Part shown: piece after piece, positions 38,474-64,000 of the stretch | Layout of the letters: each line of letters begins with the position of its first letter | Numbering within the stretch: the first letter of the stretch is position 1 | Origin: an uncultured delta proteobacterium | GTDB taxonomy: Bacteria > Desulfobacterota > Binatia > UTPRO1 | Assembly: GCA_963753325.1 (NCBI GenBank) | Contig: CAVWBS010000003.1 | Location: 963,979 to 1,027,978, forward strand | Length of the DNA: 64,000 nucleotides | Reading direction: 5' to 3' | Program-made: the position numbers and the translations under genes | The notes under the pieces: model-generated | Seen by the model: the letters and a program-made list of their open reading frames with translations, nothing else | Database searches by the model: none | What the model was told of the DNA's origin: nothing

Positions 38474-39182
38474 TCAGGCGAGGTCGAAGAGCAGGAGCTC
38501 GCTGCGGCCGGCGCCGCCGTCGGCGACGATCTCCAGCGCGTGCTGGTCCGCGACCGCCGCGCCGTCGCCGGCACCGAGCACGGCATCGTCGAGGCGCACG
38601 CGTCCGTCCGTGACCTGCACCCAGGCGTAGCGGCCCGGCGCGAGCGCGTGCGTGACGCGCTCGCCGGCGCCGAGGACCGCGGCGTGGATCCGGACGTCCT
38701 GGTGCACCCGCACCGAGCCCTCCGTGCCGTCGTGCGACACGATGAGCCGGAGGCGCCCGCGATGCTCCGCTTCGGGAAAGGCCTTCTGCTCGTACTCGGG
38801 CCGCAGGCCGCGGGTTTCGGGCAGAATCCAGAATCTGCAGCAGGTGCACCGGCTCGTGGCGCGACGCATTGTACTCGCTGTGGGTGATGCCGGTGCCGGC
38901 GCTCATCCGTTGCACGTCGCCCGGACGGATCGTCGATCCCGTGCCCATGCTGTCGGCGTGGGCGAGGGCGCCCGCGAGGACGAACGTGACGATCTCCATG
39001 TCCGCGTGCGGATGCGTCGGGAAGCCGCGGCCGGGCTGCACGCGGTCTTCGTTGATGACCCGCAGCGCGCGGAAGCCCATGTGCGCCGGATCGTGGTAGT
39101 CGCCGAAGGAGAAGGTGTGGAACGTATCGAGCCAGCCGTGATCGAAGTGGCCGCGCTCGGCGCTCGGGCGAAGGGTGATCAT
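38474..39182 (-). CDS. Pirin family protein (+1 frameshift as assembled at about 38832)
   Basis: [38 protein letters not shown]; removing one T from CAGATTCTGG gives LQIWILPE and a 235-aa ORF. Confidence 0.92.
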
Positions 39183-39301
39183 CGAGACGGCTCCTCTGAG
39201 ACAGTGCTGGGTCGCTGCAAGTGTGGCGAACGGCGCGTGTCTGCGCAACCGTGCCGGCGGCAATGGACCTCCCGGCGATCTTTCTGTACTTCCCCGGTGG
39301 T

Positions 39302-40186
39302 ATGTCGAAAGGACCGCTGCCGCCGCCGCGGAAGCTCGTCGATCCGCGGCTGCGCCGGACGATCGTCCGCGAGGGCGCGCCGCGCCGCGTCCTCGGCGAC
39401 ATCTACCATGCGCTGCTGAACGCGCACTGGTCGGTCCTGTTCGCGCTCTTTGCCGTCTACTATCTGGTGGCGAATACGTTGTTCGCGCTGGCGTATCTCG
39501 CGGGCGGCGACGACCTCGCGAACGCGCGCCCGGGCTCGTTCGCCGACGACTTCTTCTTCAGCGTCCAGACGCTGGCGACGATCGGCTACGGCTCGATCTG
39601 GCCGAAGACGCTGTATGCCAACGTGCTGGTGGCGCTCGAGGCCCTGATCGGCGTGACCGGCTTCGCCCTGGCCGCGGGCCTCTTCTTCGCCAAGTTCTCG
39701 CGGCCGACGGCACGGGTGCTGTTCAGCAAGGTCGCCGTGATCACGGCGCGCGACGGTGTCCCGTCGTTGATGGTGCGCATGGCCAACGAGCGGGCGAACC
39801 AGGTCGTCGAGGCGCAGGTGCAGGTGTCGCTCGCCCGCAGCGAGCGGACGATCGAGGGCGAGGAGGTGCGGCGGTTCTACGACCTGGCGCTCACCCGCAC
39901 GCGCACGCCGATCTTCCTGCTCTCGTGGACGGTCATCCATCCGATCACCCCGCAGAGCCCGCTCTACGGCATGACGCCCGAGTCGCTGCTCGAGACGGAG
40001 GGCGAGATCATCGTCTCGGTGACGGGCGTCGACGAGACGCTCTCGCAGGCGATCCGCGCGCGCTATTCCTATCTTCCCGACGAGGTGGTCTGGGGCGCGC
40101 GCTTCGCCGACATCATGTCGACCCTGCCCGACGGCCGCCGCCGCGTCGACTACACCCGATTCCACGAGGTCGTGAGCGCGAGCTGA
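39302..40186 (+). CDS. Inward-rectifier K+ channel (KirBac family)
   Basis: [14 protein letters not shown] selectivity filter, [27 protein letters not shown]. Confidence 0.93.
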
Positions 40187-40205
40187 CGCGCCGCGAGGGG
40201 CTAGG

Positions 40206-40556
40206 CTAGGCGAACCCCCACTTCTGCTTGTTGGCCTCGATCTCCTCGGCGGAGGGCGGCGTCTTCTTCTCGGTCGGCGAGACGATGAAGTCGTCCTTGT
40301 GCTCCATCATCAGGTAGTTGAGCGGGCTGTCGTCGCTGAACACGGCCGGGACCGCGGACTCCTCGAAGATCGCCTGCCAGGGACACTCCGGCTCGCACGC
40401 GCCGCAGTCGATGCACTCGTCGGGGTGGATGTAGAGCTGGTTCGGAAAGGTGGCGTGGTCCGATCCCTTGTAGGCGTAGATGCAGTCGACGGGGCAGACC
40501 GAGACGCACGCGGTGTCGACGCAGTCGCGGCACAGACGGGTGATGATGTAGGTCAT
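40206..40556 (-). CDS. Dicluster (7Fe-type) ferredoxin
   Basis: [14 protein letters not shown] (Cx2Cx4Cx3C) and [12 protein letters not shown] (Cx2Cx2Cx3C). Confidence 0.93.
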
Positions 40557-40614
40557 GGACGACGCTCCTTTCCTCGTACCGGGGTCGGAATTGTCGCGAT
40601 TCCGCTGGACTCTG

Positions 40615-43236
40615 TCAAAGCGCGCGGCCGATCCGTGGCCGCGCGCGGTGGCGGAGCGCAATGTCGGCGAGGAGAAGGACGAGCGCGAGCGGCACGAGCA
40701 CGGGCGCGAGCGCCATGTGCTCGCGCACGACGCCCGGTCGCGCCGCCAGTACGGCCGCGGGCTCGGGATCGAGCGTCCCCCCGGTGAGCTGCGCGAGCTG
40801 CTCCAGCAGCCGGCGATTCGGATGGTCGGCGGCCAGCTCGCGGCCCGCATCGCCGCTGGCCGGCACCATGAGATCGATCTGCTCGGGCAGGGACGGCCCG
40901 GGGCCGAGCAGCAGCACCGACTGCGGGCCGCTCCGGAGGTTCGGCACCATCGCGGTGAAGGTCCGCGGGCCGCTCCGGCGGAGCGGGAACTCGGCGCCCG
41001 CGGGCAGGCGGAGCGCGTACGGCCCCGGCGCCTCGGCGACCGTCTCGAGCCGTACCAGCGTGCCGGCGGCGAGGCGCTGCGCCTCGAGGCGATGATCGGA
41101 GGACAGGCCGGACGGCGCCGCCCAGCGGGCGAGCTGCGCCCACAGGGTCCCGAAGCCGTTCCAGGCCGCCCAGTCCGCGGCGCCCGCCTGGAAGTCGAGG
41201 GGGATCACCGCGACCCGGCCGAGCTCGTACTGCCAGGTCGCGAGCACGGGATCGTGGCGCTCGCCGTTCTCCACGTACAGTCGAACCTCGGCCTGCGGTC
41301 GCGCCTGGGTGAGCGCGTAGCGGCGGATCGCCGGCAGCTCGTCCTCGGCGAATCCGGCGAGCAGGCCGCCCGGCGTGCCGAGGCGCGGCGGGCGGTCCTG
41401 GCGCTCGGGGCTGTCGCTCATCAGGCGCTGCGTGTCGCGGATCATGAGCTGCGGCAGCGCCTGGACCCGCTCGACGTGGTGGAACTCGCCGCCGGTCGCG
41501 CGCGAGATGGCGTCGAGCAGCTCGAGGTTGGCGTCGTCGGAGCCGATGCGGATGGTGGTCACGGTGATCTCGGCGCGCGCCAGCGCGGCGATCAGCTCGA
41601 CGTGGTCCTCCGCGCCGCGATTCGTGTCGCCGTCGGTGAGGAGGATGATGTGGCGGACGCGCCGGCCGGATTCGATCAGATGGCGCCGCGCATCGTCGAG
41701 CGCGTCCTTGAAATCGGTGCCGCCGCCGTACTGCAGCTGCTGGATCTTCGTGGCGAGCGCGCTCCGGCTCTCGCCGACGGGGCGGAGGGGGCCGAGCTCC
41801 GTCGGAAGCGAGTCGAACGCGATGGCGCCGACGAGATCCTTGCTGCCGAGCTGATCGAGCACGGCGAGGGCGGCCCGCTTGGCGTACTCCATCTTCTCCC
41901 CGTTGTGCAGCATGGCCTGGGTGCTCGAGTAGCCCATGCTGTTCGAGCGGTCGATCACCAGGTAGAGCGCGATCGGCTCGCGTTCCTGCGGCTCCGGTGT
42001 CTGCGCCCGCAGATCGACCGGCAGGACGCGGTCGAGCGCGCTGCCGGTCCAGCGCGCGTCGCCGAAGAGATGCTCGCCGCCGGTCACGACGAGCCCGCCG
42101 CCACGTCCCACCCATGCCGCCAGCTCGGCGAGCGCCGCGTCGGCGAAGGCCGCGCGCGTGACGTCGTCGAGGACCACCAGATGATACGCGTCGAGTCGCG
42201 CGGCGCGGCTCGCGAACACCGGCGGTGCGATCAGCTCGACGTGCATGCCGCGCTCGGCGAGCGCCGTGGCGACGACCGGGCTCTCGTGCTCGCTCACCAC
42301 CAGCACCTGCAACGGACGCGTCACGGCGAGCGCCGCCCGCGCGCCGCCGAGCGGCGGCGGCGCGGCGCCGTTCACGGCGAGGCGCGCCTCCAGCAGATAC
42401 TGTCCCGCGCCGCGGGCGCGGTACGGAAGCTCGACGACGCTGACGCCCGGAGCCAGGTCGATCGACGTGCCGCTCAGGCGCTCGCCGTTGGCGGTCAGCT
42501 CGAGCACGGCGCGCGTCGTCTCGGGCGCCCGGCTCTCGACGACCGCCTCGAGCGGCACCGTGACGCGCTCCGGCGCGAGGCGCGGCGCGAGGAGACGCCG
42601 CACGGCCGCCGGCGGCAACGCGGCGCCGTCCGGCAGCAGCGGAAACGTGGGTACGACCGGCTCGGTCAGCGTGGCCTCCGCGAGCGCGCTCCCGGTCGTC
42701 TCGTTGCCGTCGGTGAAGAGCAGGAGGGCGGCCTGCGTCTCCTCGGGACACAAGGTTGCCGCCGTCGTGAGCGCGCCGGCGATGTCGGTCTCGCCGGCGT
42801 CGGCTCCGATCGCGTCCGTCGGCGGAAGGAGGTCGTCGATCGTGTGCCGCTGCGCCAGGGGGCGCGCGAGCACGCGGGTGCGGGTGGCGAACGCGAGCGA
42901 GCCGAGCAGATCGTGCGCGCCGAGCGCGGGCACGAGCCGCTCGAGGAAGGCACGGGCACGCGCCGCCCCTGCGCCCCCGACGCTCGCCGACGTGTCGATC
43001 GCCGCGATCACGCACGCGCCGGCCTGCGGGCGCGTGCGCTCGACGTAGGCGCCGGCGAGGACGAGCACGACCGCAAGGGCGGCGAGCGCGCGGCAGGCGA
43101 TCGCGAGCGCCATGCCCTTGCGCGCCGCGATCAGCAGCAGCGGTAGCGCCAGGAGGAGCAGCAGCGCCCGCGGAACCGCCAGCGACATTCCGGCGTGCGC
43201 GGCGAGCGCCGTCAGGTGGTCGACGATCGTGCTCAT
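40615..43236 (-). CDS. Membrane-anchored double-VWA protein with GATase-like middle domain
   Basis: IDTSASV and IDRSNSM MIDAS motifs, [32 protein letters not shown]. Confidence 0.87.
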
Positions 43237-45098
43237 GGCCGTACCCGATCGCGCCGGCGGAGCCACGTCAGCCACTCCAGCGCGAGGAGGGCGGCGCCGA
43301 GCGCGTACATCCACGCATCGACCTCCCGGCGCGCGCGTGTCGGTGGCGGCGGGGTCGTGACGGCCGGCGCCGCCGGCGTCTCGCCGGCCCCGCGGCGCCC
43401 GATGTCGGATTCGCGCTGGTCGAACAGGTTGGCGAGGATCAGCCGCTCGCCGCCGGTCGGCCCGAGGCGGTAGGTCCCGACGCGATCGGCGACCACGACC
43501 GCGGGATCGCCGACGACGCGCAGCCCCGCGCCGCCCGACGGCCCCGCGATCGGCGCGGTCGGACCCGGCCCGAGCGTTGCCGGCACGCCCGTCTCGACCG
43601 TGAGGGCGCCGCCGCCGAACGGCTCGGCCAGCCAACGGAGCGCGCCGAGGGTGAGCATCAGGAGGGGCAACGCGTCGGAGGAGGTGAGGGGCGCCGCCAG
43701 CTCCGTGCCGAGGCACGCGAGCCGCCGGCCGTCGCGCTCGCCGGCGACGAGCAGCGGGAACGCGAGCCGCCGCGAGGCCGCGAGCACCACCGGATCGCCC
43801 CAGGGGGCGGCGTCGAGCGCCGTCGCATGCGCCACCTCGATCGCGTCGAGGGACTCGAGGCCGCGCAGCAGCGGATGGTGCGATGCCCAGTCGATCACGG
43901 CGGCGCCCTCGAACGCGCGCGTCGTCGGGCAGATGGAGTTGCCCGCCGGCGGCGCGACGTACAGGGCGTTCACCGCCGGCGGCAGGGCGGGCGGCACGAT
44001 GCCGTCGAACAGCGCCGCCCGCCGGCCCGCGAGTCCGTCGGGGTGATAGCGGTCGCGCGCCACGACCTCGACGCGGCTGCCGGCGACGGCGGCGGCGATC
44101 TCGCCGAACGTGTCCGCCAGGTCGTGCGAGTCGGTGACGAGCAGGAGATCGAGCGGTGCTGCCGGACCGATCCACCCGGTCGCGCGGTCGTCGACGCCGA
44201 GCGCGTCCTCGCCGAGCAGACCGACGGACAGCACGCCGCCGTGGGGCGGTGCGGCGAGCAGCGCGTGCTCGGTCGAGCGCGGGGCCAGCGTCAGGTCCCG
44301 TTGCTCCCAGCGCTCGCCACCGATCCATGCCTGCACGGTCGCGCGGCGAGCGCTGCCGCTGAAGTTCCGGACGGCGACGTCGACGCTCGCCGCGCCCGCG
44401 GGCTGGAACGGCGCCTGGTCGACGGCGAGATCGATGATGCCGACGTTGTCGTCGGTCGCGCCGATCTGGATCCAATGGAATGCGCGGACATCCTCGGACG
44501 CGATGCCGGCGTCGTCGGGCGCCAGGTCGGTCAGGACCGCGAGACGGGTGTCCGGGCGTGCGCGGGCCTCGCCGAGCGCGAGCTCGAGCGCGGGCGCGAG
44601 GTTGGTCGACGTGTCGAGGGGCGCGAGGGCCTCGAGCCGGGCGCGCAGCGCGGCGCGGTCGGCCGTCCAGCGTTGGGCGACGTGCGGGCGCTCCGCCGCC
44701 GTCACCAGCATCGCCTCGTCGCCGCTCGCGAGCTCGTCGAGCAGGGCGCGCGCCCGGCGCTGCGCCAGCTCGAAGCGCGTCCCGTCCCTTTCCTGCGCCT
44801 GCATGCTGGCCGAGGCGTCGAGCACGACCACGAGGCGCCCGCCGCCGGCCGGGAGCGGCCGGCCTTGCACGTACGGCCGCAGGTATCCCGCGATCAGGGC
44901 GAGCAGCAGCGCGAGCTGGAGCAGGAAGAGCGCGTCGGGACGGAAGCGACGGCGCTCGAGGACCGCGGTCGGGACGCGTGACCAGAGAAGCAGCGCGCCG
45001 ACCCGCACGATCCGACGGCGGCGGTCGAGCAGATAGAGCGCGACGAGCGCGGCGATCGCCGCGAGCATGAGCGCGCCGGCGGGATTGAGGATGCCCAT
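43233..45098 (-). CDS. BatA-domain + VWA protein
   Basis: MGILNP...LVALYLL...VGALLLW BatA N-terminus, VLDASASM, C-terminal TM LLALEW. Confidence 0.88.
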   Translation of the reverse strand: MGILNPAGALMLAAIAALVALYLLDRRRRIVRVGALLLWSRVPTAVLERRRFRPDALFLLQLALLLALIAGYLRPYVQGRPLPAGGGRLVVVLDASASMQAQERDGTRFELAQRRARALLDELASGDEAMLVTAAERPHVAQRWTADRAALRARLEALAPLDTSTNLAPALELALGEARARPDTRLAVLTDLAPDDAGIASEDVRAFHWIQIGATDDNVGIIDLAVDQAPFQPAGAASVDVAVRNFSGSARRATVQAWIGGERWEQRDLTLAPRSTEHALLAAPPHGGVLSVGLLGEDALGVDDRATGWIGPAAPLDLLLVTDSHDLADTFGEIAAAVAGSRVEVVARDRYHPDGLAGRRAALFDGIVPPALPPAVNALYVAPPAGNSICPTTRAFEGAAVIDWASHHPLLRGLESLDAIEVAHATALDAAPWGDPVVLAASRRLAFPLLVAGERDGRRLACLGTELAAPLTSSDALPLLMLTLGALRWLAEPFGGGALTVETGVPATLGPGPTAPIAGPSGGAGLRVVGDPAVVVADRVGTYRLGPTGGERLILANLFDQRESDIGRRGAGETPAAPAVTTPPPPTRARREVDAWMYALGAALLALEWLTWLRRRDRVRP

Positions 45099-45102
45099 CG
45101 GC

Positions 45103-45996
45103 TCACCGCCGCCGGATGACTCCGGCGCGCGCGAGGTCCCCGGTGAGCAGCGTGATCACGTCGGTGCCGGCGACGAGGCGCACGTAGGTTGCGCGGTGGC
45201 GATCGGCGATGGCGCGGAGCGCGTCCAGATGCGCCGTCAGCGCCTCCCGGTAGAGCGCCAGATTCGCGTCCGTCAGCGCGATCGCGCGCCGCGCCCCGGA
45301 CTCGACGTCGGCGAGCACGGCGCGGCTGAACTCGCGTGTCGGGTCGAGCTCCCCGGGTCCGATCACCTGGAGGAGGTGTGTCTCGAAGCCGTGCGCGCGC
45401 AGTACGCGGACGCCGTGCTCGATGGCGTCGGGCTCGATGAGGAAGTCGGAGATGAGGAGCGCGACCCCCGGTGCCGCATGGCGCGCGACGTGCTCCGCGA
45501 GCGCCTCGGGGAGCGCGAGCGCGCCCTCGGCGCGGCGGGTGCCGAGCCACTCCGCGACCCGCCCGATGCTGCCGCGCTGGCGGAAGATCGGCGAGCGGCC
45601 GGTGGCATCGCCGAGCAACGCCAGACGGACGGCGTCGCCGCTCCGCAGGGCGACGTAGGCGAGCGCCATCGCCAGCTCGCACGCGGCGCCGAGCTTGTCG
45701 TCCGCGACGGGGGCGCCGAGTGAGGCGCTGGCGTCGAGCAGGACGTGCACCACCACCTCGCGCTCCGCGACGAAGCGGCGCACGAGGAGGCTGTCGAGGC
45801 GGCCGAGCGCATTCCAGTCGAGATGGCGGAGGTCGTCGCCCGGCGCATAGGTGGCGTGGGCCTCGAGCTCGATGCCGGAGGGCTGCGGCCGGCCCGGCAC
45901 GCGCCGCTCGCCGGGGCGGGCGCCCATGCCACGGCGCACCCCCAGGGCGAGGCCATCGTAGCGGGTCAGCCGGACGGGATCGAGGAGCGCCCTCAT
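45103..45996 (-). CDS. DUF58 family protein
   Basis: YAPGDDLRHLDWNALGR, LLDASAS, LISDFL. Confidence 0.92.
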   Translation of the reverse strand: MRALLDPVRLTRYDGLALGVRRGMGARPGERRVPGRPQPSGIELEAHATYAPGDDLRHLDWNALGRLDSLLVRRFVAEREVVVHVLLDASASLGAPVADDKLGAACELAMALAYVALRSGDAVRLALLGDATGRSPIFRQRGSIGRVAEWLGTRRAEGALALPEALAEHVARHAAPGVALLISDFLIEPDAIEHGVRVLRAHGFETHLLQVIGPGELDPTREFSRAVLADVESGARRAIALTDANLALYREALTAHLDALRAIADRHRATYVRLVAGTDVITLLTGDLARAGVIRRR

Positions 45997-47027
45997 GCCC
46001 GCATGCGGCGCGCCATGGCGAGGACGCTCTCGATCACGCGCGCGGGGGTGATGCCGGCCGCCTCCGCCGCGAAGTTGAGCACGACGCGATGTCGCAACGC
46101 CGGGAGGACGACGCGATCGACGTCCTCGGCGGTGACGTGCGGGCGTCCGTTGAGCAGCGCCCGCACCTTGGCACCGAGGAGCAGCGCCTGGCCGCCGCGC
46201 GGGCTCGAGCCGTAGGCGACGTAGCGCGCGACGTCGTCCTCGGCGCCGCTGCGGCCGACGCTCTCACCGCGCGCCGCCGCCGGCACCGTGAGCCGGACGA
46301 GGCCCGCGACGTAGCGCTCGATCGGCGGCGCCACGAGCACGTGGCGCACGACGCGCCTCAGCTCCTCCACCCGGCCCGCCGCGTGCTCGCGCTCGAGCAC
46401 CGGCAGGATGCTCGGGACGTCGGCGCCCGTCGTCGAGCTGACGATGCGCTCGAGCTCGGCCTGCGACGGGTACTCGAGCAGCACCTTGAAGAGGAAGCGG
46501 TCGAGCTGTGCCTCGGGCAGCTGGTACGTGCCTTCCATCTCGATCGGGTTCAGCGTCGCGAGCACGAAGAAGGGCGGCGCGAGCGGATAGCTGGCGCCGG
46601 CGACCGTCACCTGCTGCTCGGCCATGGCCTCGAGCAGCGCCGACTGCGTCTTCGGCGTGGCGCGGTTGATCTCGTCCGCGAGCAGCAGGTGCGCGAACAC
46701 CGGGCCGGGCACGAACGTGAACTCGCGCCGGCCGTCGGCGCCCTCGTTGATCACGCGCGTGCCGGTGATGTCGGCCGGCATCAGGTCGACGGTGAACTGG
46801 ATGCGGTTGAAGCTCAGGTTCAGCGCCTCGGCGAGCGAGCGCACGATCAACGTCTTGCCGATTCCCGGCACCCCCTCGATGAGGACGTGGCCACCGGCGA
46901 AGAACGCGGTGAGGATGCTCTCGATGACCTGCTCGTGCCCGACGATCACCTTGCCGATCTCGCGACGTACGGCGCCGAAGGTGTCGTTGAAACCGGCGAT
47001 CGCGGCGGCGCCGAGGCTCGGGGTCAC
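45993..47027 (-). CDS. moxR: MoxR family AAA+ ATPase
   Basis: EGVPGIGKT, IQFTVDLMPADITG, LADEINRATPKTQSALLEAMAE, GTYQLPEAQLDRF. Confidence 0.95.
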   Translation of the reverse strand: MTPSLGAAAIAGFNDTFGAVRREIGKVIVGHEQVIESILTAFFAGGHVLIEGVPGIGKTLIVRSLAEALNLSFNRIQFTVDLMPADITGTRVINEGADGRREFTFVPGPVFAHLLLADEINRATPKTQSALLEAMAEQQVTVAGASYPLAPPFFVLATLNPIEMEGTYQLPEAQLDRFLFKVLLEYPSQAELERIVSSTTGADVPSILPVLEREHAAGRVEELRRVVRHVLVAPPIERYVAGLVRLTVPAAARGESVGRSGAEDDVARYVAYGSSPRGGQALLLGAKVRALLNGRPHVTAEDVDRVVLPALRHRVVLNFAAEAAGITPARVIESVLAMARRMRA

Positions 47028-48367: not shown

Positions 48368-48423
48368 GACGGCGTCGGGTGTCGTTCGACGATAGTGAAG
48401 CGCGCCCGGACCGTCAACGTGCG

Positions 48424-50956: not shown

Positions 50957-52101
50957 ATGAGCTATCTCAGCACCAAGGACTTCCTCGACGACGAGGACTT
51001 CGTCGATCGGTGGCAGTACACGATGCGCACCGGCGAGCTCGATCTCTCCTGGATGCACGCCGCCACCAAGGAGGCCGTGTGCACGGCGCAGAACGCGCGC
51101 CGCGGGCTCACGTTCCGCGATCTCGACGTGGCCGGCTACGGCTACAGCAGCATGCCCGAGCTGGCCAGACGGAACCGCAGCTTTGCGCCGCGCGGCGCCG
51201 AATCCCTCTCGGCTGCCCCGACCTCCAGGCGGAGGTCAACCGCAAGAGCGAGGTGTGGGCGTACAACGTCGAGGGCTACTACGAGGAGGCGATGTCGCGG
51301 CAGTGGAACGCCACCACGGACGTGCCCTGGGCCGACCTCGCCGCGACGGAGCTGCCGGACGACATCGCGCGCGCCTACTCGCAGCTCCTGACGTTCCTCA
51401 CCGAGGTCGAGATGATCGCGACCGACGTGCCGGCCAAGTGGCTGGGACGGCTGAACGCCGACTTCTTCGAGGTGAAGAACTTCATTGCGACGCAGGTGAT
51501 GGACGAGGCGCGCCACGCCGAGGTCTTCCGCAAGCGCGCCCTCACCACCGGCTACGGCCTGATGAAGGCGAGCCCGGCCAACGAGATCAACCTCAAGTTC
51601 CTGCGCGACGCCGACAGCTTCTCGGAGTCGTCGACCACCCTGCACCTGCAGGCCGAGGGCATGGTGCTCACGCTCTTCCGCTTCAGCGAGTACATCGCGC
51701 CGACCGAGGGCGACAAGAAGCTCTTCCGCCTCGTCATGCAGGACGAGGCGCGGCACGTCGGCTACGGCATGCAGCACCTGAAATGGGTGATCGATCACTT
51801 CCCCGAGAAGCGGGAGATCATCCACAAGCACCTCGACGAGGCCGAGAACTTCGTCTTCGGCGGCGCCTACGCCGTCGAGGTGATGGAGCCCTTCATCATC
51901 CTCAGCGGCAAGGGCATGAAGAAGGAGAACATCGAGCAGGGCTGCAAGATCACCGCGCAGTTCCAGGTGAAGCAGGTCGAGGAGTACTTCGAGCGGCTCG
52001 AGAAGTGCGGCCTGCCCGAGCGCAGGCAGCGCTCGCAGCTCTACAAGGCGCTCGAGCTCGGCCAGGCCAACCTCGCGGCGATGGGGCTGCGCACGCACTG
52101 A
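50957..52101 (+). CDS. Ferritin-like di-iron protein A, complete ligand set (-1 frameshift as assembled at about 51201)
   Basis: TEVE...DEARH...AEG...DEARH; adding one base at GAATC gives GAEIPLGCPDL, colinear with GSEIWGKLPDL in the paralogue, and a 381-aa ORF. Confidence 0.88.
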
Positions 52102-53210: not shown

Positions 53211-53368
53211 GCGAAGACCCTCCTTTGTCCGTTGAGTTGCCGTTGGTTTCTTGCGAATCGCGCGCGATGTTCGCCACGGCGGATGTCGAGTGTCAAATCG
53301 GATCGTGCGTCCGCCCTGCCGCGCGGACCGATGGTGGGACGGGACCGTGCTTGCTACGCTCCGCGGCC

Positions 53369-54827
53369 ATGACGATCACCGGCGCGGCGTTCCCTGCCAG
53401 CTCCGCGGACCTCTGCTTCCTCCCGGCGCGTGATCTCGCCGGGCTGATCCGTGGCCGCGAGGTCTCGGCGCGCGAGGTGATGGCGGCCCATCTCGGACGG
53501 ATCAACGAGTGGAATCCGCGCCTCAATGCGATCGTCGCGAGGCTCGACGACGATGCGTGTCTCGCGCTGGCCGACGAGGCCGATCGCCGTCTCGGGCGCG
53601 GCGAGCCGGTCGGCCCCCTCCACGGGCTGCCGTTCGCGTTCAAGGATTCTGGAGGCCGCCGTCGGCTTTCCCATGACGCTCGGCTCGCCGATCCTGAAGA
53701 CTTTCATGCCGACGGAGGATACGGTCGTCGTCGAGCGCCTGCGTCGGGCCGGCGTTGTGCCGATCGGCAAGACGAACGTGCCCGAGTTCGGCATGGGCTC
53801 GCACACGTACAACCCGGTCTACGGTCCGACGCGGAATCCATACGACGCGACGAAGAGCGCCGGCGGCTCGAGCGGCGGCGCCGGGGCGGCGCTCGCCGCC
53901 GGTCTCCTGCCGCTCGCCGACGGCAGCGACTACGGCGGCTCGCTGCGCAATCCCGGGAACTTCAACAACGTGGTCGGCTTCCGGCCGACGGTTGGCCGCG
54001 TGCCGCTCGCGCCGCATCCGTTTCCGTTCGTCGGCTTCCTGGTGAAGGGTCCGATGGCGCGCTCCGTCGCCGACGCGGCATTCCTCCTGAGCGTGATGGC
54101 CGGCGCCGACGCGCGTGACCCGGGCTGCTTCCCATCCGACCCGACGGTCTTCACGCGGCCGCTGGCGCGCGACCTGAAGGGCGTGCGCATCGCGTGGTGT
54201 CCCGACCTCGGCGGACTTCCGCTCGACCGGCGGATACGGGCCGTCCTGGACGCGCAGCGCACGACGTTCGAGCAGCTCGGCTGCGAGGTCGAGGACGCCG
54301 CGCCCGACCTGACCGGTGCCGAGAAGGTCTTCCTCGACCTCCGCATGTGGATGACGCACAACCGCCTCGGTTTCCTGCTCGACACGTACCGCGACCAGAT
54401 GAAGCCCGAGGCGGTCTGGGAGGTGGAGACGGGAGCGCGATTGAGCGGCGCGGACGTGGCGCGGGCGACGGTGCAGCAGGGCGAGATCATGGAGCGGATG
54501 CGCCGCTTCCAGGAGCGCTACGAGTTCGTCGTCTGCGCGGTGAACCAGGTGCCGCCCTTCGACGTCGCCCTCGACTGGCCGAAGGCGATCGACGGCGAGC
54601 CGATGGAGCACTACCTCGCGTGGATGCGCTCCGCCTACTGGATCACGGTGACGTTCTGTCCCGCGATCTCGGTCCCCGCCGGATTCACCGCCGACGCCTT
54701 GCCCGTGGGGCTCCAGATCGTCGGCCGGTACCGTGACGACTTCGGCGTGTTGCGGATCGCGCACGCCTTCGAGCAGGCGACCGGCTTCGGCCGCCGCCGC
54801 CCGCCGGAGGCGCCCTCCCGTGCTTGA
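53369..54827 (+). CDS. Amidase signature family protein (+1 frameshift as assembled at about 53647)
   Basis: GPLHGLPFAFKD, GKTNVPEFG, AGGSSGG, DGSDYGGSLR; removing one T from AAGGATTCTGGAG gives KDLEAAVGFP and a 485-aa ORF. Confidence 0.92.
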
Positions 54828-54864
54828 CGAGCGCCGGATCCTTCTCGTATCGCCTCGATGAGCC

Positions 54865-55977: not shown

Positions 55978-56166
55978 GCGCGGTCCTCGAACGAGCGGGT
56001 CCGATCGCGGGGGCATCCCCGTGATTTCGTGCATGTCCCGCGGCGATCCTCCGACCTGGCAATTGGTGTCTGCACCGCATGCGAGGTCTGGCCGTGCATT
56101 GCGGTTGGGGTTTCGCTACTGCTTTCGTTGCCATGATCCGCGCAGGACGAGTATACGGAGAGCGTC

Positions 56167-56197
56167 GGAGGTATGTGACCTGAGGAGGTATCTGACC
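56167..56197 (+). repeat. 14-bp direct repeat GGAGGTAT(G/C)TGACC in the leader of VWA-OmpA
   Basis: Copies at 56167-56180 and 56184-56197, 13 of 14 bases identical. Confidence 0.75.
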
Positions 56198-56214
56198 GGA
56201 GAAAGAGAGGCGCG

Positions 56215-57237
56215 ATGATGAGAAAGACGATCGTGTGGTGGGTGTTCGGTTTCGTGCTGGGCATGGTTTCCGGAATGGGCACCGCTCGGGCGGAGCTGAC
56301 GAACTGCTCCCCCAAAGTCGACAACTTCGTCCTGTTCGTCGACCAGTCGGGTTCCATGTACCAGCAGCATCAAGATGCGAAGGAACTCAAGGAGATCCTG
56401 GTCAAGAAGGTTCTCGGCGAGATGAACGATGAGATCCCACAGCTCGGCTACAAGGGAGGCCTGGACCTGTTCGCGCCCTTCGCGACGACGGTGCCGATGG
56501 CGCCGTATTCCCGGGCGGCGATGGGCGCGGGGATCGCGTCGATCCCCGACAGCCAGCCGGTGTTCTGGCGCAAGACGCCGATGGGCGCGGGCATCGGAGA
56601 TCTCAACGGCGTCGTGGGCGGCCTCAACGGAAAGACGGCGGTCATCATGTTCTCGGACGGCGAGCAGAACGAAGGCCCGGATCCGATCGAGACGGCGCAG
56701 CAGCTGGTCAGCGCGCACCCGGACCTCTGCATTCACGTGGTCTCGTTCGCCGACTCGGCCTACGGCACGTGGTACAACCTGCGCGTCAGCAGCGCCGGCA
56801 AGGGATGCCGGTATGCGGAGGGGACGGAGCTCCTCGCCAACGGGCCCAAGCTCGAGCAGTTCGTCCGTGACGTCTTCTGCGGGGAGCCGGTGAAGCGGAA
56901 GCTCGTCCTCCGCGGCGTGAACTTCGACTTCGACAAGGCCACCATCAAGCGCGAAGGGGAGCCGGTGCTCGACGAGGCCATCCAGGCGCTCAAGGAGCAG
57001 CCCGACGTGCGGATCTCGGTCGAGGGGCACACCGACTCGATCGGGACGGATGCGTACAACCAGCGTCTGTCGGAGCGTCGAGCCGAGGCCGTGGCCGACT
57101 ATCTGGCCGCGGGAGGCATCGCGCGCAGCCGCATGTCCGCCAGGGGGTATGGCGAGTCGAGGCCGGTCGCGAGCAACGCGACCGAGGACGGGCGGGCCCA
57201 GAACCGCCGCGTCGAGTTCGGGCTCCTCGCGAAGTAG
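56215..57237 (+). CDS. VWA-domain + OmpA_C exported protein
   Basis: Signal peptide, VDQSGS MIDAS, KTP, FSDGE; VNFDFDK...EGHTDSIG...NRRVE. Confidence 0.9.
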   Translation: MMRKTIVWWVFGFVLGMVSGMGTARAELTNCSPKVDNFVLFVDQSGSMYQQHQDAKELKEILVKKVLGEMNDEIPQLGYKGGLDLFAPFATTVPMAPYSRAAMGAGIASIPDSQPVFWRKTPMGAGIGDLNGVVGGLNGKTAVIMFSDGEQNEGPDPIETAQQLVSAHPDLCIHVVSFADSAYGTWYNLRVSSAGKGCRYAEGTELLANGPKLEQFVRDVFCGEPVKRKLVLRGVNFDFDKATIKREGEPVLDEAIQALKEQPDVRISVEGHTDSIGTDAYNQRLSERRAEAVADYLAAGGIARSRMSARGYGESRPVASNATEDGRAQNRRVEFGLLAK

Positions 57238-57247
57238 GCGTGCCGAG

Positions 57248-57286
57248 GACGGCGACATCCCCATCGCGGGATGCCGCCGTCTCTTC
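57248..57286 (+). terminator. Probable terminator hairpin between convergent genes
   Basis: GACGGCGACATCCC...GGGATGCCGCCGTC stem with one mismatch, then TCTTC. Confidence 0.5.
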
Positions 57287-57320
57287 GGGCTCCTTCGCGG
57301 CGGCGCGTCCCGCCCCGCGC

Positions 57321-57618
57321 TCAGTGCACGGTGTCGTTGACCGCCGGACGGCGGCGGTCGAACGGCGCGCCGCTCAACAGGCGATACTCCTCCACGAGTT
57401 CCAGGTACTCGGCGCGCGCGACGAGGCCGTCGACGCGGCGATACACCAGGCCCTCACTCACGCGCCCGTAGGAGTCACGGAAGCGGCGCGGGCGCGGCGG
57501 CTCGGCGACGATCCAGAATCTCGCGGCCGTGGTGCTCGACCGGCACCCGCCAGGTGCCATAGTCGCCGCTCACGATCCGGGCCTTGCGCAGAAGGGACGC
57601 CTTCGGCTGCGGAGTCAT
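57321..57618 (-). CDS. Small hypothetical protein, 98 aa once a +1 frameshift at about 57517 is removed
   Basis: MTPQPKASLLRKARIV...HHGRE; GAGATTCTGGATC corrected to EIWIVAEPPRP...DTVH*; 298 bp minus 1 equals 99 codons. Confidence 0.65.
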
Positions 57619-57631
57619 GGGATGGAGACAC

Positions 57632-57647
57632 TGCAGGAGCGGTGCCA
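57632..57647 (-). promoter_or_regulatory. Candidate sigma-54 promoter
   Basis: Minus strand TGGCACCGCTCCTGCA with GG-N10-GC spacing, immediately upstream of ATG 57618. Confidence 0.5.
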
Positions 57648-57753
57648 GCGGGGCGCCGTAGGCGGCGCCGGGATGTTGCGGTAGAAAACGCCGTTGCAGT
57701 GGCGGATTTGCGTCGTTCCGCCAACGCTTTGACCGGGAAGGAGCGGTACCCCG

Positions 57754-58722
57754 ATGGCGATCGGCGTCGGCGTGATCGGCGGCGGAAAGCATGGCGAGCG
57801 CTATCTTCGTCACGTGTCCGACGTTCCGGGACTGTGTCTGGTGGCGCTCTGTCGGCGCGATCGCGCACGCGGCGAGCGGCAGGCGCGAGATGCCGGGTGT
57901 CGTTTCCACGATCGCGCGGAAGCGTTGATCGCGGACGCCGACGTGGCGGCGGTCGTGCTCGTCGTGCCGCCGACCCTGACGGTGCGGTTCGCGAGCGCCG
58001 CCGCAGCGGCTGGCAAGGCGGTGCTGATCGAGAAGCCGCTCGCGCCGACGCTCGCCGACTGTCGAACGATCGCCGACGCCGTGGCGCGCGCCGGCGTTCC
58101 CGCGATGGTGGCACACACGCTGCGCTTCAACCCGACGGTGATGGCGCTGCGCGCCGCCGTCCCCACGGTCGGACCGCTGCACGCGGCCGTGCTGACGCAG
58201 CGCTTCGAGACGTCGTCGCTCGGCTGGCTCGACCGCCGCGCCGAGGCGGGCGGTGGGATCATCCTGCACACCGGCGTCCACAGCTTCGATCTGCTCCGCC
58301 ATCTGACCGGCGACGAGCCGCAGCGCGTGAGCGCCCGGGCGGCGCGCGTCGCGACCCGGGAGACCGAGGACAATTTCGTCGCGACGGTGGAGATGGCGAG
58401 CGGTCTCCTGGCGCTGGTCGGCGGCTCACGCGCGACCATCGGGCGCTCCGGCGCGATCGAGCTCGCCGGGCGCGACGCCCAGCTGGCCGGCGATCACGTC
58501 CACGCCCGCGCGGTGCGGCTCGTCGGCACCACCAGCGAGGCGCTGCCGCTCGGCCCTCCCGTGCAGACGGTCGAGGTGACGCTGCGCGAGTTCGCGGCCG
58601 CGATCGACGCCGGTCGCGCGCCGGCGATCGGCATCGACGACGGCGCCGCCGCGGTGGCGATCGCGGACGCCTGCTATCGCTCGATCGCCAGCGGGCGGGC
58701 GGAAGCGGTCGAGCGTCTCTAG
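57754..58722 (+). CDS. Gfo/Idh/MocA family oxidoreductase
   Basis: VGVIGGGKHG, VLIEKPLA, AHTLRFNP, GGIILHTGVHSFDL. Confidence 0.92.
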   Translation: MAIGVGVIGGGKHGERYLRHVSDVPGLCLVALCRRDRARGERQARDAGCRFHDRAEALIADADVAAVVLVVPPTLTVRFASAAAAAGKAVLIEKPLAPTLADCRTIADAVARAGVPAMVAHTLRFNPTVMALRAAVPTVGPLHAAVLTQRFETSSLGWLDRRAEAGGGIILHTGVHSFDLLRHLTGDEPQRVSARAARVATRETEDNFVATVEMASGLLALVGGSRATIGRSGAIELAGRDAQLAGDHVHARAVRLVGTTSEALPLGPPVQTVEVTLREFAAAIDAGRAPAIGIDDGAAAVAIADACYRSIASGRAEAVERL

Positions 58723-60404
58723 GCCTCGCGCGCGCGCACGACCCGCAGCAGGCCGGCCGTGGCGTCGAGCTCGAGGTCGTCGCCGTCGCGGATCATGCGC
58801 GTCGCGTCGGCGACGTTGACCAGCGCGGGGATGCCGAGCTCACGCGCGATGATCGCGCCGTGCGACAGCTGGCCGCCGGCGTCGAGCACGAGCCCCGAGG
58901 CGAGCTCCAGGATCGGCGTCCACCCGGGATCGGTGTAGCCCGCGACCATGATGTCGCCGCGCCCGAAGCACGGGAAGTCCTCGGCGTCGCGGACGACCCG
59001 TGCCCGCCCGCGACATGCGCCCGGGGCCGCGCACTCGCCGCGCAGCGTCAGCCTTCCGTCGGCCACGCCGTCGCCGGCGGCGACGCCCGGCTCGCCCTCC
59101 GGCCGCTCGTCCACGTCGAGCGTGGTGGGCGGCGGCGCTGCGCCGTCACGCACGAGCTCTCGGCGGCGCGCCGCGAGGCGCGCGGCAAGCGGCAGCGGCG
59201 CGGCGTCCGTGCTCGCCGCGCGTTCACCGAGCTCGTCGAGCGTGAGCAGGAACACGTCGGCCGGCGCGCCGAGGCCCTCCTCCCCGACCAGCCGTGTGCC
59301 GGCCGCGAGCGCGAGCTCGCGCATGCGCGCCAGGAAGAAGTCGGCGTAGTAGCGCATGTTCTCGCGCACCACGTAGTAGCGCTGGGCGGCCGCGAGCGCG
59401 GCGCGGAAGACGGGCACCCGGACGGTACCGCCGCGTCCCGCAGCGACGGCGGCTTCGATCCGCGCCGTGGCAGCGGCGCGGCGCCGGGCCGCATCGTCGA
59501 GGACGTGGCGCCCGACGCTCCGCGCCGCGAGGCCCACCACGACGTCGGGGCTCTCGCGCCAGCTCGCGCACGCGAGGTCGCGACCGACCAGCCGGTGCCC
59601 GTGGCGGGCGAGGATCGCACGCAACGCCGCCGCGGCCGGGCCGTCCCGCCGGACGACCATCTGCGCGGCGCCGCTCCCCCGCGCAGGCGCGGCCGCAAGC
59701 GTCTCCGCATCGCGCGCCAGGAGCGCGCCGAGCTCCGCGAGGTCGTGCGCGGCCTCGAGCGAGGCGACGTCCGGCAGGCCGATCGTGAGCGCCGCGTGAT
59801 CGGCGTCGTGCCCCGGCGCCCACCGGCGGCAGAGCTCCTGCAGGAGGTGGTAGAAGACGTAGGCGTACACGACGCCCCAGCTGACGCCTTCGAGATAGCG
59901 GCCGAGCTCGGCGCGCGTCCCGTGCAGCTCGCCGAGGAGCGTCGCCAGTGAGGCGTCCGACGCGGGCGCGGCGACCCCCGCGAAGCGCTCGCGCACGGCG
60001 GCACAGGCGGTCTTGAAGGCGGCGGCGCGCTGCCACGGCGACCACGCGGGCTCCTGGAGCGCGAAGCGCGCGATCATCCCGGCCGTGCGCGCCGCGGCCG
60101 CGAGGGCGGAGGTGGGGACGACCCGCTCGCGCACCTCGGGCGGCAGCAGGTGGAGCAGCCCCTCGCTCAGGAGCACCGGTGGCAGCAGGCTCACGACCTC
60201 GGCGAGGAGGGCGCCGTTCACGTAGACGTGGCTCCGGCTGCGCAGGAGCACGGGCTCCGCCGCCAGCAGGGGAAGGCTGGCCTGGCGGAGCGACCGCCGC
60301 ACCATGTGCTCCGCCATGGTCTCGGCGAGGAGCGAGTACGTGAGGGGCGTCACGGGCCCGCTCCAGAACTCGTCCGCGATCCGGCGGGTCCAGACGGTCT
60401 TCAC
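58719..60404 (-). CDS. PEP-utilizing (phosphohistidine swivel) domain protein without an ATP-grasp domain, rifampicin-phosphotransferase-like
   Basis: WTRRIADEFWSGPVTPLT start; GRARVV...GDIMV...TDPGWTP...GGQLSHGAIIARELGIPA end. Confidence 0.85.
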   Translation of the reverse strand: MKTVWTRRIADEFWSGPVTPLTYSLLAETMAEHMVRRSLRQASLPLLAAEPVLLRSRSHVYVNGALLAEVVSLLPPVLLSEGLLHLLPPEVRERVVPTSALAAAARTAGMIARFALQEPAWSPWQRAAAFKTACAAVRERFAGVAAPASDASLATLLGELHGTRAELGRYLEGVSWGVVYAYVFYHLLQELCRRWAPGHDADHAALTIGLPDVASLEAAHDLAELGALLARDAETLAAAPARGSGAAQMVVRRDGPAAAALRAILARHGHRLVGRDLACASWRESPDVVVGLAARSVGRHVLDDAARRRAAATARIEAAVAAGRGGTVRVPVFRAALAAAQRYYVVRENMRYYADFFLARMRELALAAGTRLVGEEGLGAPADVFLLTLDELGERAASTDAAPLPLAARLAARRRELVRDGAAPPPTTLDVDERPEGEPGVAAGDGVADGRLTLRGECAAPGACRGRARVVRDAEDFPCFGRGDIMVAGYTDPGWTPILELASGLVLDAGGQLSHGAIIARELGIPALVNVADATRMIRDGDDLELDATAGLLRVVRAREA

Positions 60405-60412
60405 GAATGCCC

Positions 60413-60473
60413 TTGACAGCCCACGCCGGCCCTTCTATTTGTGAACCATAGTTCAGTTATGAATATGGATTCA
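60413..60473 (+). promoter_or_regulatory. Sigma-70 promoter plus two palindromic TetR-type operators
   Basis: TTGACA 60413-60418, 17 bp, TATTTG; TGAAC-cata-GTTCA 60442-60455 and TGAAT-atgg-ATTCA 60460-60473. Confidence 0.75.
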
Positions 60474-60482
60474 GCATAGCGG

Positions 60483-61112
60483 ATGGCTTCCGCGTCCGCC
60501 CGGATCGAGAACGCCGTCGGCTCGCGACAGGACCGGCGCCGCGCGCGCACGCGCGCCGAGCTGCTGGCCGCCGCCAAACGGCTCCTGGCCTCGAAGGGGT
60601 TCCACGGCACCAAGATCGCGGACATCGCCGCGGCCGCCGACGTCGGTACCGGCACGTTCTACCTGCACTTCCCGACCAAGGACGCGCTCTTCTCCGATCT
60701 GGTGCGGGAGACGGCGCTGCGTGCGCGCGAGGAGATCGACCGCGCCAAGGAAGCCGTCAGCGATCCCCGCGACCAGGCGCGCGCCGCCACCGAGACCCTC
60801 TTCCGCTTCGCCGCCCGCAACCGCGACGTCTTCAAGATCCTCTTCGGACAGGGCGCACAATTCAACGAGCTGCTGCACGAGGTGCATCAGCTCTTCATCG
60901 TGGAGACGGAGGAGAACCAGGCCCGTGGCATCGCGGCGGGCGCATTCAAGCCCTTTCGGCCGGCGATCGTCGCCCAGGCGGTGGTCGGCATGGTGTCGCA
61001 GGTCGTGTCGTGGTGGCTCGAGCACGACGACATCGCCATCGAGGAAATCACGGACACGGTCACGCGCATGCTGCAGGAAGGCATCGCGATCAAGGAGAGC
61101 ATCCATGAATGA
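60483..61112 (+). CDS. TetR/AcrR family regulator
   Basis: KGFHGTKIADIAAAADVGTGTFYLHFPTKDAL. Confidence 0.94.
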   Translation: MASASARIENAVGSRQDRRRARTRAELLAAAKRLLASKGFHGTKIADIAAAADVGTGTFYLHFPTKDALFSDLVRETALRAREEIDRAKEAVSDPRDQARAATETLFRFAARNRDVFKILFGQGAQFNELLHEVHQLFIVETEENQARGIAAGAFKPFRPAIVAQAVVGMVSQVVSWWLEHDDIAIEEITDTVTRMLQEGIAIKESIHE

Positions 61113-62103
61113 GCCAGCCCAGGGCGTCGAGGCGCTTGTTACCGTCGAGGACTTCACCGAGCGACTCTCGACCACCTTCGACACCTGCTACACGTGGAGC
61201 TACGACAGCTTCAAGGTCGGCCTGCGCAACCTCTACGAGAAGGCCAAGCAGAACCAGTGGGACTCGGCGACCGCCATCGCCTGGAACACCGACGTCGATC
61301 CCGAGGCGGAGAACCTGCCCGACATGAACAACCCGCTCTTCGGGACCGCCATGTGGGCCAGGTTCACCGAGGCGGAGATCCGCAAGTTCCGCCGCGAGCA
61401 GCTGTCGTGGAGCCTCTCCCAGTTCCTGCACGGCGAGCAGGGGGCGCTGCTCGCCACCGCGCAGATCGTCGACGCGGTGCCGTGGATGGAGGCCAAGTAC
61501 TACGGCGCGACGCAGGTCATGGACGAGGCCCGTCACGTCGAGACCTACGACCACTACCTGCGCGACAAGATCCAGAAGGAGTATCCGATCAATCCGCATC
61601 TCAAGGTCCTGCTCGACCAGATCCTCACCGACTCCCGCTGGGACATGAAGTATCTCGGCATGCAGATCCTGGTCGAGGGCCTGGCGATGGCGGCATTCGG
61701 CTTGATGGAGAAGTTCTCCAACGAGCCGCTGCTGAAGCAGCTCACCCAGTACATCATGCGCGACGAGTCGCGGCACGTGGCCTTCGGCGTGCTCTCGCTC
61801 GAGACCTACTACCGGGATCTGAGCGAGCGGGAGCTGCGCGAGCGGCAGGAGTTCGCCTACGAGGGCTGCCGCCTGATGCGCGATCGGCTCTACGCCGTCG
61901 AGGTGTGGCAGGAAATGGGCCTGCCGATCGAGGAGACGCGCGAGATCGTCATGAGCTCGGAGATCATGCGCGAGTTCCAGAAGATGCTCTTCTCCAAGGT
62001 CGTGCCGAACGTGAAGCGCCTCGGCCTCCTCACGCCGTGGCTGCGCGAGCGGTTCCACGAGCTCGACATCCTCAAGTGGGAGCACGAGGAGCCGAGTGCA
62101 TAA
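61105..62103 (+). CDS. Ferritin-like di-iron protein (AurF N-oxygenase-like family)
   Basis: LYEKAKQNQW, SQFLHGEQGAL, DEARH, VEGLA, DESRH; start overlaps the TetR stop. Confidence 0.9.
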   Translation: MNEPAQGVEALVTVEDFTERLSTTFDTCYTWSYDSFKVGLRNLYEKAKQNQWDSATAIAWNTDVDPEAENLPDMNNPLFGTAMWARFTEAEIRKFRREQLSWSLSQFLHGEQGALLATAQIVDAVPWMEAKYYGATQVMDEARHVETYDHYLRDKIQKEYPINPHLKVLLDQILTDSRWDMKYLGMQILVEGLAMAAFGLMEKFSNEPLLKQLTQYIMRDESRHVAFGVLSLETYYRDLSERELRERQEFAYEGCRLMRDRLYAVEVWQEMGLPIEETREIVMSSEIMREFQKMLFSKVVPNVKRLGLLTPWLRERFHELDILKWEHEEPSA

Positions 62104-62131
62104 CGCGCCCGCCGCGCCCTAGATATTGAGG

Positions 62132-64000
62132 CTAGGGGCGAGTCGCAGAGCGCTCCGCCGTATCCGAGCAGCGCCGGTCGCCGACGAACGCGAGGAGCGG
62201 CGGACCACCCGACCGGACCCCGAGCTCCCAGCGAACGTCGCGCGGCGCGGAGCCCGAGGCACGCACGACGCCCTCGTGGATGCCGTGCAGATGGTGGGCG
62301 ACGCAGACCGCGACGCGATTGTCACGCGCATTGCCGCCGCCGCGTGAGCGGAATTGCAGGTGATGGTCATGCAGGTTCCGCCGCGAGCTGTACCCCGGCA
62401 CCGCGCACCGCCAACCGTCGCGTTCGAAGATCGGATCGCGATGACGCGGCGTCGATTCCCAGTGGACGATCACGTGTCGGAGCACGCATTCGAGCGCCGA
62501 CCAGCGCGGGGCGCCCGGCCGCGAAAACACGTCGAGCGCCTCGCGAAACAGCGCAACGACCGACGCCTGCGCGCTGAAGCAGATCTCCGCGTCGGCGACC
62601 TCGAGCCACGCCCGCATGTCGGTGTCAAAATTTGGCACCGCTGCCGCGACCCCGGAGCCGGGCGCCGCCGGGTCGCTTTGCGCACGGATTTGCACTCCGG
62701 CGTCGGGGGCGGCATCGGATCCCTCCGCGGCGGCGTCTGATCTCACCGCAGCAGCGTCTGATCTCTCCGCGCCGGCATCCGATCCCTCCGCGCCGGACCG
62801 TGACCCGGCGAGCGCGATGGGCATGGCGGGCGAGGCCAAGACGCTGTCGAGAGGCGGCGGAATCCAACGTGCCGCGCCCGGCGGCGAGCTCGTGTCGTTC
62901 GAGAACCCAGCTCACCTCGTCGACGAGACGACGCACCGTAACGGCTTCCGCGCGCGCGATCCATGCAGCGGCGTTCCGGCGGTCGACCACCGGCAGCAAG
63001 GCCAGCGCTTGTACCCACGAGAGGGTGCCGCTCTCGTAGGCGCGGGCGAACGCGTCGCCACGACGCGTGCCGCGCTCGATCTTGAGGAGGGCCCACGCTT
63101 TCCGCGCCGAGAGGCCGAGCCGCTCGCGAGCGTATGCCGCGAGCGAGTCGAAGCGGTGAGCGCGATGCACGCGCTGATCGACGATGATTCTGAGGAGACG
63201 GCCGATGCGCGGCTCGCACGTCCGGATCGTCTGCACGGCGGCGAGCGCGCGTTGGTCGAGCGCGAACGCATCGGTCGATGGGGCGGCCCTTCCAGGCGGC
63301 GGCTCTAAAGGCGGAGGGGCCGCCGGAGTGGCTGCCGCGCGGGTAATCGATGAAGAGGCCCCGTCGGCAACGCGCGGCTCAGTGGCCGCGGCAATATCCG
63401 CGCCCGCGATAGTCGCTGCGGGTGGCATCGCCGGCACTGCAGGCGCTGGTGCGACCGAGACGCGCTTCCGCCGCATCCGCCGCGCGAGACGCAAGCCCGC
63501 GAGGATCATCCGATCGATGAAGGGCGCGCCCTCGGGACGTCCAGAGAACGCTTCGGCGGCGATGCACTCGGCCGCGCGCCACAGCGGGAGCGGCTCGCCG
63601 GCGGCGCGCGACGCAAGCTCGAGGGCGCGGCGCCACAGCGCCCGCACACGCGAGGGGCACGCGATACGCACCCGGACGATCGGCTCGCCGTCGATCGTAC
63701 CGTCGTCCGTGTCCGGATCGGCATTGGCGCCTTCGTGCCGCGGCGCGGCCGCTTGCTCGAGAGCCTCGACCGTGGATTGGCGGGCGCGTGCCAGCCACGC
63801 GTCCTGATCCTCCGGAGAAGCGAGCGCACAGAGCGCGCGCACCTCGGCCCACGATAAGTCGGAGCGATCGAACGCGGCTGCGATGGCGGGAAGCTCGTCG
63901 AGGCGAGTGGCCACCCACGCGGCGGCCTGAAGGGTGCGGGCGGAGAGCCCGAGGCGCTCACGCGCGTAGTCGGCGAACCGAACGAAGCCGAGGCGGCGGT
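62132..64000 (-). CDS. DUF222-like / HNH endonuclease protein (5' truncated by window; +1 frameshift at about 62862; HNH Cys to Tyr)
   Basis: Two YARERLGLSAR repeats; RDGWRCAVPGYSSRRNLHDHH...RSRGG...N...C..HH..IH; removing one T from TTGGATTCCG joins the frames as TLDPPPLDS. Confidence 0.8.
62712..62795 (-). repeat. 4 x 21-bp degenerate tandem repeat in the HNH protein linker
   Basis: Encodes GAEGSDA-GAERSDA-AAVRSDA-AAEGSDA. Confidence 0.75.

Follow-up and report, generated by a model that had tools for sequence, protein, structure and literature searches.

Motif-linked consensus errors have been described for nanopore sequencing, both at the Dcm motif CCWGG (Wick et al. 2019, PMC6591954) and, more generally, as modification-mediated errors (Chiou et al. 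2023, PMC10687267). The published modification-driven errors are chiefly mismatches and not insertions (PMC10687267), and the same holds for the errors linked to Dcm (PMC6591954). Generic indel errors are known from low-coverage long-read metagenome bins, for example those built with nanopore-only Flye and one round of Medaka (PMC12313526).

Here we examine a recurrent extra T, seen in a window of 64,000 nucleotides (the whole stretch of DNA that was analysed) and then across the genome to which it belongs. The assembly has 3 contigs, 4.92 Mb, 70% GC and an estimated completeness of 75.95%, and the closest named relatives of the genome are Candidatus Binatia. We consider it very probable that the extra T arose as a systematic error in the consensus of a metagenome assembled from long reads only, and that it is absent from the DNA of the organism. 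At roughly 2-5% of R-GATCT-S sites the consensus would read GATTCT, so that a gene that is in fact intact is split between two frames. The cause probably lies in the sequence context as handled by the basecaller or polisher, not in Dam-type methylation, on a platform that was presumably nanopore. The assembly also contains clumped indel errors, unrelated to this one and more numerous.

Within the window there are exactly three copies of GATTCTGGA: in a pirin gene (38827-38835, minus strand), in an amidase gene (53645-53653, plus strand) and in a short gene coding for about 98 aa (57512-57520, minus strand). An independent codon-score scan finds a frame switch at each (38834, 53648 and 57519, respectively), in agreement with the initial annotation, which had reported this 9-mer three times and always at a frame break. 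Its rarity is also borne out, as none of 100 shuffles reaches three copies, but the computed expectation is 0.33 per window, not about 0.15. The further statement that removal of one T restores each frame is backed by a continuous family match for pirin and amidase, and by the coding signal for the 98-aa gene.

The pirin break is seen in the motif count, the six-frame reading and the codon scan. The coding strand reads CAG-ATT-CTG-GAT where the residues Q-I-W-I are expected, and in a Pfam search the read-through carries a single Pirin domain (residues 9-119) over the junction. Directly downstream of the break, six-frame reading and the read-through search place a second motif, GGATTCTG (38822..38829, minus strand), which in the restored frame is TGG-ATT-CTG (W-I-L); this copy is natural, and its 7-bp tandem arrangement with the erroneous one is due to chance. 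For the amidase (AAG-GAT-[T]-CTG-GAG, read through as F-K-D-L-E) the scan is joined by two other observations: the Amidase profile is divided at the site into positions 1-57 and 62-445 (at C3:1017628/1017642), and the relatives G003, G005 and G025 have GGATCTC or GGATCTG here, without the extra T. The 98-aa gene (GAG-AT[T]-CTG-GAT-C, expected E-I-W-I; scan score 188) gave no family match when its read-through was searched against Pfam, so that here it is the coding signal that supports the break.

Two further genes had been counted as breaking at GATC, and neither belongs with these three. In an HNH-like gene, six-frame reading suggests a possible extra T in GGATTCCG (62857..62864, minus strand). 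The coding signal is too weak for a call by the scan, a Pfam search returned zero matches, and the context GGATTCC lies at breaks in 2.8% of its copies genome-wide (against a baseline of 1.9%), at most a marginal enrichment; the site is thus a putative break outside the enriched 7-mer class. The ferritin-like (di-iron) gene has a break of the missing-base type (51200..51211, plus strand; shift-2 event at 51209, score 187), with weak ferritin-like matches downstream of the break only, and represents another error class than the extra T.

The effect is partial, as proposed earlier, because GATCTGGA is intact in five copies in the window (a purine precedes two of the five). Intact RGATCTS totals 44 copies there, and the motif listing includes unaffected copies of AGATCTGG at 28163..28170 (plus strand) and 34953..34960 (minus strand).

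Across the genome the extra T is confined to the context R-GAT[T]CT-S, that is, to the 7-mer RGATCTS. AGATTCT and GGATTCT lie at frame breaks in 10.2% and 13.5% of their copies, against a baseline of 1.9%, and in the genome-wide tabulation none of the remaining 14 NGATTCN contexts stands above that baseline (GGATTCC, see above, being at most marginal). In total about 60 RGATTCTS frame-break sites were detected, maybe more (examples are C3:1017625, positions 765552 and 746867 on the minus strand of C3, and C1:1910880), corresponding to ~2-5% of motif copies; on the sense strand GATTCT is found at 33 breaks where 0.5 are expected from the local background. The claim that frameshifts cluster at GATC was consequently too broad: once RGATCTS is set aside, breaks show no enrichment of GATC, with 129 against 121 for extra-base and 52 against 65 for missing-base events. 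Motif events are spread evenly and are not tied to error-dense patches, so low coverage alone was rejected as their cause. Homopolymers show a weak enrichment at breaks and were therefore rejected as well. Replication strand has no effect on motif events.

The remaining breaks in this assembly are numerous. Candidate frame switches across the genome number about 600 with an extra base and 300 with a missing base, and they are clumped along the contigs; Pfam confirmed 7/10 and 5/10 random non-motif events, the DnaE finger domain among them, and dnaE itself carries one non-motif frame break. Five of the eight amidase paralogues are split, and a single Pfam domain bridges the junction in 7 of 10 motif events. 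Many breaks thus fall in conserved or essential genes and the read-through products are typical of their families, as expected of an indel artefact. Because hundreds of unrelated frame breaks are present, dnaE included, it is most likely that the genes are intact and the assembled sequence is wrong.

Comparison with relatives points in the same direction. Of 21 orthologous sites in five assemblies from the same genus, 19 are shorter by exactly one base within GATTCT, and the extra T is present in none of ~50 same-genus sequences at the 21 sites. The initial reading of the genes as intact and the breaks as artefactual is therefore upheld by these sites, the continuous read-through matches and the hundreds of other breaks. 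In three other contiguous, low-completeness members of the family (G008, G010 and G018, whose platforms may differ) the class is seen at 0 of 84 RGATTCTS sites, and no alternative strong 6-mer class appears in 400 kb of each. Since it is missing from three error-rich relatives, it is not a universal platform error. The whole-genome count of RGATTCTS, made in 18 relatives (84 per Mb in this genome against 47-81 per Mb in its genus), is uninformative, because natural variation masks an excess of 60-125 sites.

It might be argued that RGATCTS, or some fraction of the GATC sites, is modified in this organism and that a T is inserted because the modified base disturbs basecalling. Such a footprint would fit the restriction to one 7-mer, its occurrence in this assembly only among four error-rich relatives, and the even spread regardless of local error density, as for a systematic site-dependent error. 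We nonetheless regard it as unlikely. A six-frame search of the 4.92 Mb gave no match to PF02086, PF01555 or PF00145 (Dam/D12, N6_N4 and C5), to PF02384 or PF07669 (N6_Mtase and Eco57I), or to DndC, whereas the positive control (PF01425) recovered 15 amidase pieces; phosphorothioation is rejected on the absence of DndC. The few per cent of motif copies affected also speak against modification and, together with the searches, against the GATC methyltransferase that the genome had been proposed to encode. Nor is the motif GATC itself: CGATC, GATCG, GATCA and contexts like them stay at the baseline, so that the pattern is not Dam-like, as a Dam/DpnII/Sau3AI-type footprint would be seen with any flanking bases whereas RGATTCT alone exceeds the baseline. 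Finally, what is seen is the insertion of one base and not the mismatch that predominates in the modification-mediated and Dcm-linked errors cited above.

Less probable again is a reading with two variants. In the first, RGATCTS would carry an organism-specific modification, visible via its basecalling footprint alone and made in a Binatia-related bacterium by an enzyme that belongs to none of the known methyltransferase or Dnd families. In the second, the sense-strand bias would reflect a real transcription-linked, motif-directed insertion of single Ts, or its RNA-level correction. The bias itself is clear: motif breaks are distributed 45:15 over sense and antisense, against 844:1126 for intact sites. 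It remains after adjustment for the mononucleotide context of ±8 nt (odds ratio ~2.8), by which that context is rejected as its source, and it is not predicted by a pure DNA-level artefact.

A mixture of strains, with a C/T polymorphism beside a T and both alleles written into the consensus, is very improbable. Dropping either T or C restores the same amino acids (CTG/TTG Leu, ATC/ATT Ile) and one relative has GAATTTG at site s21, but both the strict R...S specificity of the 7-mer and the absence of the class from other metagenome assemblies would be left unexplained. Real lineage-specific insertions, from a motif-directed mutational hotspot yielding recent pseudogenes, have still less in their favour. 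They would agree with the restriction to this genome (G000) among those of its genus, and the sense-strand bias would suggest a process that senses transcription. However, at least 60 conserved genes would be broken while their downstream frames are open and high-scoring with continuous domain matches, all events would need to be very recent, and the hundreds of other breaks (dnaE) would be impossible in a living cell. Recoding, in which the proteins would be restored at GAUUCUS by +1 ribosomal frameshifting or by correction of the RNA, can practically be dismissed despite the sense-strand bias and the family-typical products: two codon phases are in use (GAT|TCT in 28 events and G|ATT|CT in 16, proportional to the 576 and 265 intact sites) with different P-site codons, a further 15 motif events are antisense, the ~50 same-genus sequences show no conservation, and there is no slippery sequence, the next codon in the second phase being the common CTG and not a rare one. 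A biological indel or recoding had already been ranked below an artefact, and the codon phases and relatives agree.

The consensus-error explanation has practical consequences, as the genome may well serve as a species representative and its breaks are no ground for calling pseudogenes. RGATTCTS at a frame switch is a simple flag that marks about 60 or more of these breaks. The case also warns that a k-mer-specific indel does not prove the presence of a methylase, since the search for such genes is negative here; were modification at RGATCTS true after all, it would indicate that Binatia have a modification system not yet recognised.

Programmed +1 ribosomal frameshifting (prfB) resembles these sites in the single extra sense-strand base and in the full-length product obtained if it is skipped, but here the codon phase is not fixed, relatives do not conserve the site and there is no known stimulatory context. 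With generic indels in long-read bins the assembly shares high contiguity, low marker completeness and hundreds of clumped frame breaks, whereas the RGATCTS class is unclumped and unlinked to homopolymers, and three comparable assemblies from the family lack it. The motif-linked nanopore consensus errors are likewise similar in that they recur at one short motif, outlast consensus and polishing and vary by organism; unlike those at Dcm and other such sites, the error in this assembly, of presumed nanopore origin, is a one-base insertion in a few per cent of copies, and no cognate methyltransferase gene was found.

The frame breaks carrying an extra T are almost certainly an artefact of the assembly, tied to one sharply defined sequence context, and the genes broken at these sites are most likely intact. 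In the window GATTCTGGA occurs three times against 0.33 expected, a count reached in none of 100 shuffles, and the intact form GATCTGGA is present in five copies. As the initial annotation had claimed, each of the three copies coincides with a frame break: six-frame reading shows a switch in the pirin gene (38827-38835, minus strand), the amidase gene (53645-53653, plus strand) and a 98-aa gene (57512-57520, minus strand). That removal of one base restores the frame is confirmed for the first two genes. In pirin, omitting one base brings back H-L-L-Q-I / W-I-L-P-E-T-R, and a single Pirin domain extends across the junction of the read-through protein. At the amidase site the relatives G003, G005 and G025 have GGATCTC or GGATCTG against GGATTCTG in the window, and a six-frame family search finds the window amidase as two pieces joining at the break site (profile positions 1-57 and 62-445). 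For the 98-aa gene the coding signal is the sole support. A copy of AGATTCTG at 15867-15874 (minus strand) lies in a stretch where a codon scan traces no uninterrupted coding frame in either direction; the DNA there may be non-coding, or the copy may mark a further break that escaped detection.

Across the source assembly (G000; 3 contigs, 4.92 Mb, 70% GC), both strands were scanned using a codon log-odds model trained on long open frames, an event being a strong coding frame that gives way to another frame on the same strand. The genome-wide tabulation of k-mers at frame breaks, proposed in the initial annotation, yields GATTCT on the sense strand at extra-base events (33 against 0.5 in the local background); no other k-mer comes near this enrichment, and missing-base events show no comparable k-mer. 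Breaks are seen at 20 of the 197 AGATTCT copies (10.2%) and 42 of the 312 GGATTCT copies (13.5%), against a baseline of 1.9% at arbitrary motifs that no other NGATTCN context tested exceeds. Since, in addition, the following base at breaks is a C or, more often, a G, the affected word is R-GAT[T]CT-S. With 414 RGATTCTS and 3,319 intact RGATCTS copies in the assembly, the scan detected about 60 such motif breaks; allowing for scan-blind regions, we estimate a total of about 125 events (about 2-5% of motif copies). GATC outside the motif class is not enriched near extra-base breaks (129 vs 121) or missing-base breaks (52 vs 65). The reported clustering of frameshifts at GATC is therefore real at RGATCTS, yet narrower than claimed. 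Two sites leave the class: the HNH site, with a context (GGATTCC, 2.8%) that is at best marginal, and the di-iron break, which is of the missing-base type.

The claim of intact genes stands as the most likely reading. One Pfam domain crosses the junction in seven of ten motif events (AcrB, MMPL, metallo-beta-lactamase, H+-pyrophosphatase, sulfatase, OtsA-type glycosyltransferase, HlyD), and the remaining three have domains on both flanks in correct order. We compared the concatenated 200-nt flanks of 31 sites with five same-genus assemblies, made with short-read assemblers judging from contig names. At 19 of the 21 interpretable sites the relative shows exactly one gap, inside GATTCT; at the other two GATTCT is natural and in frame, and a different indel lies close by. 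The extra base is missing from all of the roughly 50 sequences from these relatives. At 60 or more motif events the downstream frames all stay open and high-scoring, which, together with a broken dnaE in the same assembly, indicates sequence error and not gene decay. AAAGATTCTGGCGGATCC lies at a called frame break in each of two identical repeat copies (200 nt or longer; contig positions C1:1730346 and C3:1664091) without orthologue in the five same-genus genomes, which may be a mobile element where AAAGATTCTGGCGGATCC is natural.

The assembly, with a marker completeness of 75.95% and an amidase whose closest named relatives are Candidatus Binatia metagenome bins, is error-rich throughout, given its hundreds of candidate breaks, split paralogues and clumping. 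Under a strict threshold the scan yields some 605 candidates of the extra-base and 305 of the missing-base type (about 2:1, with a 3:1 excess in the error-rich relatives G008 and G010); when read-through products of randomly chosen events were matched to Pfam, 7 of 10 non-motif extra-base and 5 of 10 missing-base breaks were confirmed. The finger domain of DNA polymerase III alpha (dnaE) spans a non-motif extra-base break (C1:1112986, plus strand), which cannot be real as the gene is essential; immediately upstream there is another break. Of the eight amidase paralogues, five are split over at least two frames (C3:76385, C1:382908, C3:1714100, C1:76909-77162 and window 53650); the break at C3:76385 falls at GGATTCC. 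Generic events clump strongly (variance-to-mean ratio about 7 in 50-kb bins), and a bin may hold up to 32 candidates where the mean is 8-10; error-dense bins include C1 200-350 kb and 700-850 kb, and C3 500-550 kb and 1100-1150 kb. There is also an enrichment of GCGCGC around extra-base breaks (80 vs 44.5 in the local background) and of CGGCGC around missing-base breaks (45 vs 22), which may represent a further context class, weaker than the first, in GC-alternating runs.

Some points favour a site-specific, assembly-specific cause of the motif breaks: they are spread evenly, independent of local error density, and the class is missing in three other contiguous, marker-poor family members (0 of 84 RGATTCTS copies at frame breaks in 400 kb each, against about 12 expected at the rate of G000). 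In two of these three, generic breaks per Mb are more frequent than in G000. A nanopore-only project that relied on Flye and a single Medaka round (PMC12313526) is the source of many long-contig bins among the amidase matches, and G000 may be another of them. The consensus would gain one T within R-GAT[T]CT-S, splitting the frame in the assembly only.

Motif breaks favour the sense orientation (45 vs 15, against 844 vs 1,126 for intact sites; Fisher p ~1e-6), a dependence on the coding strand that is not expected of an artefact at the DNA level, and the orientation term persists when ±8 nt of context is adjusted for (odds ratio about 2.8). Leading or lagging strand has no effect. Higher-order context or sequence priors in a neural consensus caller are our guesses for this bias, which leaves a small residual probability that something biological is involved. 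The codon phases GAT/CTS (28) and G/ATC/TS (16), in the same proportion as at intact sites (576 and 265), and a further 15 antisense events speak against a translational signal.

Modification of the DNA, as proposed with the GATC methylase of the initial annotation, fares poorly and the enzyme is not supported: HMM searches run on the entire assembly in six frames gave no match to MethyltransfD12 (Dam), N6_N4_Mtase, C5 DNA_methylase, N6_Mtase, Eco57I or DndC, though each search matched in control genomes; as many as 15 amidase fragments, some of only 20 residues, were recovered from G000 in the same way. Provided that the assembly is near complete, absence of five major DNA methyltransferase families in 4.9 Mb would be unusual for a bacterium of such size. 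Also against modification, the effect is limited to one 7-mer context and, within it, to a few per cent of the motif copies. Modification-mediated nanopore errors are described as mainly mismatches, indels going with homopolymers (PMC10687267; for Dcm errors PMC6591954), whereas the class described here is a one-base insertion.
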